The translations under genes and the position numbers were made by a program. The notes beneath the pieces are model-generated. The model was not told the DNA's origin. It saw only the letters and a program-made list of their open reading frames with translations, and did no database searches. 50,275 bases of DNA from Girardia tigrina (lineage: Eukaryota), in assembly GCA_001938485.1 (NCBI GenBank), contig MQRK01247332.1, forward strand, positions 19,707-69,981. Direction: 5' to 3'. The stretch's first letter is position 1, and each line of letters starts with the position of its first letter. This document shows, one piece after another, positions 17,234-19,520 of this stretch.

Positions 17234-18718
17234 TTAATATATAATTATGATTATTATAATTATTACTATCAAGAAAAACCTTAACATGATAGACACAACC
17301 CATTTGTTAACAATGGAAGATTCAATAGATTTTATAGTTGATTGAGGTTTAACTTCGTGTATTTCATCTGTTGCGTCATTATGTGGGTTATCCAATATCA
17401 ATTCTGGATTGTTTATTATGTGAGTGTCTTCATTTTCGATTATATCTAATGTGTTTGATTCTGAAATGGTTATTTTTTCATAAATAGTAATTAAGGGAGT
17501 AGTTGTTTGGAGAATTTCGTCTGAGAGATTTTCCATGGATGTAAATTTTCGACGTTTCTAGAATCATTTGATAAATAAAGTCTCCCGATGTTTTAAATAC
17601 TTTAATTTGGGACGTTTTATCGCTTTCCCATGGGTTATGATCTATAAAGTCTTCATCTCCATTCGTATAGAGGAAAATGCGAGTAGTAATATTGTTTTGA
17701 ATTTTGTGAAGAATAGAAATAGTAAATAAAAAGGTGTGATTCGTTTTTAGATTTGTGAAGATGAGCGGCTCTTTTCTCTCTGAATGAAAACATTTTTCTA
17801 GACATATTTTGTAAGTATACTGTTCAATGACGGGTGAGAAAAACGTTATTTTATTAAACTGTGCGTATATATGAATAATTTTCAAATTATCTGTTAAATT
17901 ATTTGTCTGCACGGATTTAAAGATGTTGGACAACATAAAAAAATATCAAAACTAATTTTATTAATGGTATTTTTAATTTGTTATAATTATGCGGTTTCGA
18001 TGCTTTTTCAATATCTAAACGACTCAATGCATTTACAATTTTATGATTTGAAAGAAGTATTTCTTGAGCAATTTCTAGAGTAGTTCTGTCATTTTTTGAT
18101 AATTCATTAACATCAACAACATAATTATCTTTGTCTTTTATGTGTAATGAAGCTAACGTAGCTTGAATCTCCTTACAAATAATCATTTCTTGTAAGGGGT
18201 TATAATCTCAGGATGACGTTGGAATAACGAAATGAGAATTTTGTTTCTATCAAAATTTATTGGACTAAATGGAATATTATCAACCTGAAGATTTATTATG
18301 TCTAGCCTGATTTTACTCTGCATTTGTATGTTATAATGAAGTATTGTGCATTTATAATTATCATATACTTCCACGGAAAATTTTCTAGTGATAAAAAGTT
18401 TCAGTAGTTTGTACGGGTCTCGATTAATTACAGCTAACATAAAAGCACTTTGACCTTCCTTATTTTGAAAATTGAGGGATTCTGAGACCCTAAAACACAT
18501 TGAATTTAATAGTCTATTTGCTTTATAAAATTTGTGTCGTATCAAAGGTACCTGTAGCGGTGTATTCCTGTTTAAATCTTTAACCGTTAAGAGTTTTGGT
18601 TTGCGAGTAATAGCTATTCGAAAAATATTCTTATCGTCATTTATTCCATTGGCATACTCATGCACGATATAATTGTCAATTCCTTCAATTTTTTGTTGAA
18701 ATATTACTTGATAGTCTA
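17234..18718 (-). pseudogene. Ankyrin-repeat-containing region plus an unknown tail, directly downstream of a Gypsy integrase
   Basis: Ankyrin-like motifs VKDLNRNTPLQ, LNFQNKEGQSAFMLAV..LLKLFI, VEVYDNYKCTILHY and VDVNELSKNDRTTLEIA. Four overlapping ORFs are linked by frameshifts. Confidence 0.7.
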
Positions 18719-19520
18719 TTAAGTATGGTGATAGTTTTCTTCGTCTTCATCCTGGATTTCTGATGAAAAGGAAATAGCTTCTATTGGATATGTCATGTTT
18801 GATCGACGGTTATATCTTTTATTAATGGATTTATTATTGTTTTCTGCTAACTTACATCTATTGGCATGAACAATGATTGGATTATTATTTTTATTTTTTA
18901 TATTCACTAACTATAAATTTGTTTCCGAAGCTTTTATTACTTCATATGGTCCTTTATATGGTTTGTTCAGTTTGGGACTTCTGCTTTTTTGATTCAGGAG
19001 TAAACACTCGTACGATATCTCCAATTTTAAAGGTGTGATCTTTGGCTGTTTTATCGCAATTGTCTTTATATTGGTCCTGTTTAAACTTTATTCTCATACC
19101 AGCTTATGTATATACTGAAAGTAATCGGTCTTGCATTAGTGTTACATTACAGTCTGGTATTTCCAACAAATGCAATGATGGCATTTGAAAATTTAAATCG
19201 ATCGGCATTATTGAATTACGTAAATATGTCATGTAAAACGGTGAGTATCCAGTTGATTCATTTTTTGCTGTATTATAAGAAAATAAGCATGGTCGAATGT
19301 ATAAGTCCCAGTCGCATTGTTTACGATTGACGCATGAAGTTATTCGATTTAAGAGTGTACTGTTAAATCTGTCTACTAATCCATCTATTTGAGGATGATA
19401 TGAAGTGGTGCTTAACTTTAATATATTAAACAAGGTCGTTACCTTTTTAATAGTATCACGTAGAAAATTGGCTCCTCTATCTGTCAATAGCTTTTTTGGA
19501 GTACCATATCTGAACACAAT
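18719..19520 (-). mobile_element. pol: Ty3/Gypsy integrase core and GPY/F C-terminal region, decayed
   Basis: FRYGTPKKLLTDRGANF, STTSYHPQIDGLVDRFNSTL, FSYNT..NESTGYSPFY, then PKLNKPYKGPYEVI and IVHANRCK. Confidence 0.92.

Follow-up and report, generated by a model that had tools for sequence, protein, structure and literature searches.

The window analysed here is a stretch of 50,275 nucleotides of a Girardia tigrina contig (MQRK01247332.1), and its minus strand carries, in order, envelope fragments, a broken integrase, a run of ankyrin-like repeats, a membrane-protein-like tail, a slippery heptamer and the start of a further open reading frame (ORF2). The C-terminal part of the integrase core, the only part of the core retained, begins at 19523 and is followed by a GPY motif (18961-18938) and an extension that runs from IVHANRCK (18874) to QDEDEE (ending at 18737), as seen in a preliminary description of this DNA. 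The stretch 18737-19523 is recognized in tblastn by sister proteins at 87-91% identity, with the rve integrase family detected in the sisters, and is broken by two in-frame stops (19106-19104 and 18913-18911) and one frame change. A putative protease cleavage word, proposed from a related word in relatives, lies at 18773-18787, 3' of the integrase. Directly past a frame change, at 18734, a frame starting with LSPYL opens the ankyrin module (18070-18734), whose approximately four divergent repeats (18569, 18455, 18353 and 18090) agree with the three to four first reported, and which is interrupted by a frame change near 18205. It is recognized by Pfam Ank_2 and by PDB matches, which are to ankyrin proteins and DARPins. 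An HMM scan for ankyrins had been proposed as a check; it leaves the window frame below the Ank_2 cut-off (E 1.2e-4, 23.0 bits versus 27.3), but places four sister frames above it (29.5-37 bits).

Behind the ankyrins lie a signal-peptide-like hydrophobic segment (17919-17964), a beta-rich domain with two conserved cysteines (17535-17918), delineated by an alignment of 25 segments, and a Thr/Ser/acidic stalk that leads into a C-terminal membrane helix (17237-17509, helix at 17302-17237), recognized by translation and by a hydropathy of 3.85 in sister L007. The overlapping frames previously followed down to about 17234 end at this helix. The heptamer U_UUA_AAC, placed in the ORF1 frame of intact sisters, stands 26 bases past 17234, at 17208-17202, and is followed by a 6-nt spacer and two stems (about 13 and 7 bp) of a predicted H-type pseudoknot (17139-17195), suggested by pairing, scan and folds and damaged in the window. 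The 5' part of ORF2, in the -1 frame (16708-17138), consists of a linker, an acceptor-like AG near 16967 and an AUG near 16948; it is 80% identical to sister ORF2 and is truncated at 16708, 5' of the exonuclease domain, where homology to the element stops. Frames on the minus strand at 16100-16700, starting at this cut-off, resemble a decayed hAT-type transposase.

Comparison with sister proteins reveals five frame changes across 19520-17234 (about 18985, 18735, 18205, 17940 and 17505). The frameshift near 18735 that had been described as a single one is present, but is one of these five and is accompanied by the two integrase stops; by these lesions the window copy is recognized as decayed, and it is an internally deleted relic as well. 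A third in-frame stop lies immediately past the membrane helix. On the 5' side of the integrase, a short envelope fragment (19520-19556; 95-97% identical to sister env across 37 nt) and a longer one (19561-19773; 89-93% DNA identity), both on the minus strand, are joined at short microhomologies, the longer being a remnant, left by internal deletion, of a gB-type (Monjiviricetes_fusion) envelope whose matching sister region hits PF24664 at E 3.8e-21. An origin from reverse-transcribed spliced RNA was considered and rejected, since these junctions are microhomologies and not GT/AG. No RT, protease, gag or LTR of the ankyrin element adjoins the window copy; an unrelated repeat present in about 40 copies at 82-93% identity (19780-20560) adjoins the envelope fragment.

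Integrase and ankyrins in sister copies

A search of the genome with the window's ankyrin frame listed 150 matches, among which 26 other contigs carry the region at 59-86% protein identity and a further 118 rows match at 24-38%. In sister L010, the integrase core, GPY motif, ankyrins and tail occupy one stop-free frame of 675 aa, with one 6-residue assembly gap inside, in which both rve and Ank_2 exceed their cut-offs. Of 27 family loci, 11 read through the junction from DEE to LSPY without interruption, and each of 11 adjacent anchor pairs, from the integrase core to the slip site or ORF1 end, is open in at least three sister loci, the base being the same 27 loci, many of them short or gapped. 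Ankyrin-bearing copies L041, L045 and L047 are moreover continuous into a 3' LTR; a shared integrase-ankyrin frame inside LTRs was the check suggested at the outset. For a diverged sample, 16 weak matches were retrieved; the scan took in frames from 12 of these and, in addition, one frame of the window's own family. In eight of the 12 diverged loci, an integrase family and a weak, sub-cut-off Ank_2 match share one frame. Two metagenome contigs from another source also place ankyrins behind an integrase, protease-like domains lying in between.

The fusion of integrase and ankyrins is thus real at the level of the family, and the earlier assignment of the ankyrins to the element's polyprotein is borne out by the single frame of L010 and by the open junction of the sisters. 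Values of dN/dS between 0.07 and 0.39 in all eight pairs compared show, at the level of sequence evolution, purifying selection on the ankyrin region. The breaks of L004 and L014 are independent and lie within a few bases of the window's own frame change near 18740, which suggests a fragile spot at the start of the ankyrin frame. The arrangement also varies: protease-like domains separate integrase and ankyrins in L103, L104 and P0026, and further close relatives carry the same tail with no ankyrin. The closest host donor of the ankyrins was not found in match lists filled by long generic ankyrin proteins; the best single-domain scores came from another element (41.6 bits), generic repeats reaching at most 36.8 bits.

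Architecture and class of the element

In the family as a whole, the order of domains is gag-CCHC, Bcl-2-like, PF24664 envelope, protease, RT, RNase H, integrase, ankyrins, tail and ORF2. The order protease, RT, RNase H, integrase is encountered in sister L031 and in diverged families, and the envelope, which lies upstream of the protease, shares a single frame with it in L036 and L066. The Bcl-2-like domain matches Pfam Bcl-2 below the cut-off (E 0.006-0.035), and the Bcl-2 family fills its PDB match list (best E 0.008). At the places where Ubiquitin/SUMO-like and dUTPase-like domains would be expected, segments show a likeness by eye, with shallow profiles and no supporting PDB match. Long uninterrupted frames occur in L054 (3,084 stop-free codons, including 974 gap residues) and in relative P0003 (4,029 aa). 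A single gag-to-tail polyprotein is supported junction by junction by natural copies, no retrieved own-family copy being intact throughout.

Both LTRs are present in copy C214350, which is itself broken by stops and frame changes. Its LTR pair is 95% identical over 237 gap-free bases, has TG..CA ends and encloses about 14.7 kb, with an ORF1 of about 3,300 codons, and a TGG-starting, PBS-like site follows the 5' LTR after 5 nt. In this one copy, three of four flanking bases match, without an exact target-site duplication, and no purine-rich tract was seen 5' of the 3' LTR (L030:4655-4680); a pattern for the primer tRNA was not found. The BIR domain is absent from the ORF1 and ORF2 frames scanned, and BIR matches number only seven genome-wide versus 601 copies of the slip motif described below; MATH likewise gave no match in the frames scanned. 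A search of 375 candidate viral contigs yielded no relative of the element. With respect to the host, COX1 copies read TGA as sense, fitting the flatworm/echinoderm mitochondrial code, and in what we take to be a COX1 motif AAA occupies two positions where Asn is expected, which fits the same code; the fit does not settle the host's family.

The element is almost certainly a compact, Burro-like, envelope-bearing Gypsy LTR element. As judged from its domains, it is Burro-like in design, and its size of about 14.7 kb and the lack of BIR in the frames scanned place it outside Burro1-4 in the strict sense.

The tail behind the ankyrins

A word related to the putative protease site follows YNLRS in all nine frames of the same genome that cover this place and are ankyrin-bearing or of the window's own family, which carries a weaker variant of it. 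The word also precedes the protease and RT in L054 and L067, and is absent right after the integrase in L103 and P0003. Since the pattern was set after the data had been seen, its count is biased (20 occurrences versus an expectation of 4.9), and weight can be given to the positions of the word alone. They suggest that the ankyrin module is probably cleaved from the integrase.

Hydropathy peaks behind the ankyrins at the same place in L010, L054, L058 and L061, and the same layout of a signal-like segment is observed in relatives from other sources. The beta-rich domain that follows, of which a family has between one and several copies, is modelled as all-beta with low confidence (mean pLDDT 48.5), and the model has no Foldseek match at E <= 0.001, its best VIA Z being 5.1. 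Its likeness to fibronectin type III is a likeness of motif; one weak Pfam match (E 0.051) was obtained in a relative and none in six own-genome segments, and a profile comparison did not link the own-genome segments with the fibronectin-like set of the relatives. The domain is likely lumenal or extracellular. The tail of about 250 aa, initially taken as an extension of the integrase, rather has the appearance of another type I membrane protein, ending at a frameshift-like signal. The protease-site-like word after the integrase and the signal-like segment after the ankyrins also make chromodomain-like integration targeting unlikely, integration targeting being one of two roles first suggested for the ankyrins; by analogy, a predicted role as a module for host interference or host modulation is plausible.

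A putative slip signal at the end of ORF1

An exact 18-nt motif that comprises the slip site occurs in 601 copies in the genome, which are related and not independent, and its reversed control in none. Among the loci retrieved for their ankyrins, the heptamer is present in 18 of 18 sense sites found by means of a stem anchor, four further rows being the reverse strand of the same sites. Of 39 sites, 29 have their ORF1 stop 22 codons past the heptamer, and in 36 a stop closes the -1 frame within the 13 codons upstream. Over the 40 codons past the fold, the -1 frame stays open in 22 of 35 sites, versus 2 and 5 for the other frames. This open frame is spread over nine of 13 sequence clusters, with a median linker identity of 57%, and the linker past the pseudoknot is barely constrained as a protein (pooled pN 0.117, pS 0.148).

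A strict, ungapped scan recovers the pseudoknot at 21 of 40 sites, versus 15 of 219 other heptamers and two of 200 shuffles, and misses a bulged-stem family as well as the window's damaged copy. Stem 1 is the minimum-energy fold in three of four sites (z -2.0 to -2.9), and the cells of the pseudoknot are paired in 90.7% of cases over 38 sites, the slid controls giving 23-53%. Covariation of the stems does not rise above shuffles, 236 of 500 of which reach its score, and Rfam returned no match in three loci. Three features of frameshift signals, namely a heptamer in the upstream frame, a spacer of 5-9 nt and an overlapping -1 ORF, are found here, and the site is quite probably a working -1 frameshift site, a prediction drawn from sequence. 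In two metagenome relatives that have the layout integrase-ankyrin-ectodomain-exonuclease, no slip site was found at the end of ORF1, and the ensemble reads as an accessory gene that was ancestrally expressed by splicing and that may have acquired a frameshift link in the element's own lineage.

ORF2 and its route of expression

The exonuclease encoded by ORF2 is of the DEDDh type, its nearest matches being ISG20L2, ISG20 and SDN1 (E 2e-21 to 7e-17). The acidic residues of Exo I, II and III and the His are kept in ORF3 of L103 and L104 and largely in L058; in two own-family copies the catalytic acidic residues are not retained. The N-terminal domain of ORF2 was modelled with a pLDDT of 48.6 overall, and its residues 112-218 form a beta-sandwich whose best matches (Z 8.0) are tied cupin and jelly-roll rows and lead to no assignment. 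In L103 (6861-9920) and L104 (7268-10371), two related elements that also carry extra protease-like domains past the integrase, two accessory ORFs of the same build lie in tandem, the exonuclease being degenerate-looking in the first and an intact DEDDh enzyme in the second.

ORF2 needs no frameshift for its expression, because an acceptor-like YAG, read by eye, lies 0-2 nt 5' of its AUG in 18 of 23 loci; a YAG is found before ORF3 in L103 and L104 as well. A donor-like AG/GT stands at the end of the pseudoknot. In-frame splicing from this point to ORF2 was considered and rejected, the phase not being conserved, and RNA contigs from four runs aligned to L031 gave no interpretable splice joint.

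A proposed scheme of expression and its alternatives

The explanation that best accommodates the locus, and which is fairly probable as a whole, is that of a dead Burro-like copy from a family whose ankyrins are freed as a membrane-anchored module and whose ribosomes can slip into an exonuclease ORF. In such a scheme, the element's protease would cut after the integrase, thus freeing the ankyrins, and signal peptidase would cut past the hydrophobic segment, so that the ankyrins would stay anchored in one protein and the tail would become a second protein of type I membrane topology. Translation would mostly end 22 codons after the heptamer, and a minority of ribosomes would slip by -1 and so extend the cytoplasmic tail of this second protein by ORF2; ORF2 alone would probably also be made from a spliced message. 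The ankyrins would serve as a host-binding module, for which the damping of host immune or small-RNA defence is the best guess. The bolder proposal, toward which the balance tips slightly, is that programmed -1 frameshifting may have been transferred in this lineage from the border of gag and pol to the far end of a gag-env-pol-ankyrin-glycoprotein polyprotein. A coronavirus-type signal there would attach an ISG20-like exonuclease, or a pseudo-nuclease, to the second membrane protein at its cytoplasmic tail, with splicing providing free nuclease, and hence membrane-bound and free forms of one counter-defence protein.

Three other explanations must be weighed against this scheme. That the ankyrin piece is a host pseudogene that came to lie beside an integrase by chance could be argued from the window copy, which is broken precisely at the integrase-ankyrin junction and has no LTRs; this idea was rejected, and its probability is negligible, given the single frame of L010, the junction open in 11 of 27 loci, the 26 other contigs among the matches listed and the same arrangement in diverged families and two metagenome contigs. 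The ankyrins could also stay on the mature integrase and steer integration through a chromatin factor, much like a chromodomain. Their position directly behind the GPY domain in one frame is what such a role would predict, and trees built from the ankyrins and from the integrase recover the same main family groups, albeit with long branches and with X residues stripped before alignment. This possibility is nevertheless improbable in the face of the protease-site-like word after the integrase, the signal-like segment and membrane protein in frame downstream, the protease-like domains that intervene in L103, L104 and P0026, and the close relatives that have the same tail without ankyrins.

A more serious contender, although still unlikely, holds that there is no working frameshift, that ORF2 is made from a spliced message only, and that the conserved block serves as a signal for splicing, packaging or termination and overlaps coding sequence. 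The acceptor-like YAG before the AUG and before ORF3 of L103 and L104, the donor-like AG/GT at the pseudoknot end and the absence of covariation above shuffles all agree with it, as does the description of ORF3s of LTR elements, in the relevant part of PMC5408684, as typically expressed from spliced messages. It would leave unexplained, however, both the invariant in-frame heptamer with its 6-nt spacer and a frame that is open only in -1 across a linker of 57% median identity, and splicing from the pseudoknot donor would be out of frame wherever a family has an offset of 1 or 2 nt. The scheme that combines slippage with an additional spliced message is consequently preferred here.

Relation to known elements and viruses

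Ankyrin repeats had been described as no standard domain of Gypsy integrases. They are already known from the Gypsy polyprotein of Burro elements: for planarian Burro/GYPSM1, ankyrin repeats are recorded together with BCL2 and with an envelope that lies behind gag and ahead of pol (PMC6431247), the position of the ankyrins not being stated in the text of the account as consulted. The present element shares with Burro/GYPSM1, as described there, a long ORF1 with gag-CCHC, BCL2-like domain, in-frame env, protease, RT, RNase H, integrase and ankyrins, as well as an accessory ORF and a flatworm host. It differs in size (about 14.7 kb and about 3,300 codons, whereas Burro exceeds 30 kb with an ORF1 of 4,873-5,140 aa), and the Burro account, as far as it goes, includes no frameshift signal, second membrane protein or exonuclease. 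Excerpts of other reports indicate that PIWI knockdown raises Burro transcripts (PMC8532177) and, second-hand, that a Burro1 cargo aids regeneration (PMC13465017). GAG-ENV-POL errantiviruses with an HSV/gB-type env have been described in Platyhelminthes, with six Schmidtea elements listed (PMC13524379); as described, they share the gB-type envelope before pol, and the words ankyrin, Bcl, frameshift and exonuclease do not occur in the main text of that report as consulted.

An exonuclease ORF downstream of pol is also carried by gypsy-type Juno and Vesta LTR elements of bdelloids (PMC5408684). According to the portion of that report concerned with them, theirs is a DEDDy, RNase D-like enzyme in a separate, typically spliced ORF3, whereas the present one is an ISG20/REX4-like DEDDh enzyme reached by a predicted -1 slip. 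The closest parallel to the slip signal is found in coronavirus ORF1a/1b, which combines the same heptamer, listed among the most shift-prone (PMC5009743), with a short spacer and two-stem geometry, and which likewise leads into a frame coding for a DEDDh exonuclease (PMC5009743 and PMC6211748, both in part). For the planarian nidovirus PSCNV, a host-modulating role of its ankyrin domain has been proposed (PMC6211748, in the section concerned); the replication machinery of this virus is unrelated, and its ankyrin domain is compared here by description and not by homology. Unlike its coronavirus counterpart, the signal predicted here is placed after the pol, ankyrins and membrane protein of a retroelement. 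To our knowledge, the known frameshifts of retroelements join gag, pro and pol.

A post-pol frameshift or an exonuclease in Burro-type elements was not found in the literature searched, to which Grohme 2018 and Lee 2026 (Dev Cell) did not belong; since these two may already describe parts of it, the novelty of the signal is provisional. If it works, it would constitute a retroelement frameshift at an uncommon position, as well as an RNA device of 80 nt, present in hundreds of copies and directly testable. It would also show a Burro-type element dosing an accessory nuclease, which bears on how such elements handle host small-RNA control.

Other features of the window

Separate from the ankyrin element and ordinary in appearance, a Gypsy element lies on the minus strand at 45211-48782; it has a zinc knuckle as well as protease, RT, RNase H and integrase, and its pol is only 31-34% identical to that of the ankyrin element. 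Another retroelement fragment, with an RNase H, is found at 31126-31942 on the same strand. A piggyBac-type transposase (DDE_Tnp_1_7), broken over three frames, occupies 1739-2890 (minus strand). Two pairs of direct repeats that are 92-96% identical (5979-6782 with 10608-11482, and 10257-10597 with 11703-12040) lie 4.6-4.7 kb and 1.4 kb apart, respectively. Finally, a match to the COG4 middle domain on the plus strand (43376-43741, E 1.4e-9) is probably a host exon.
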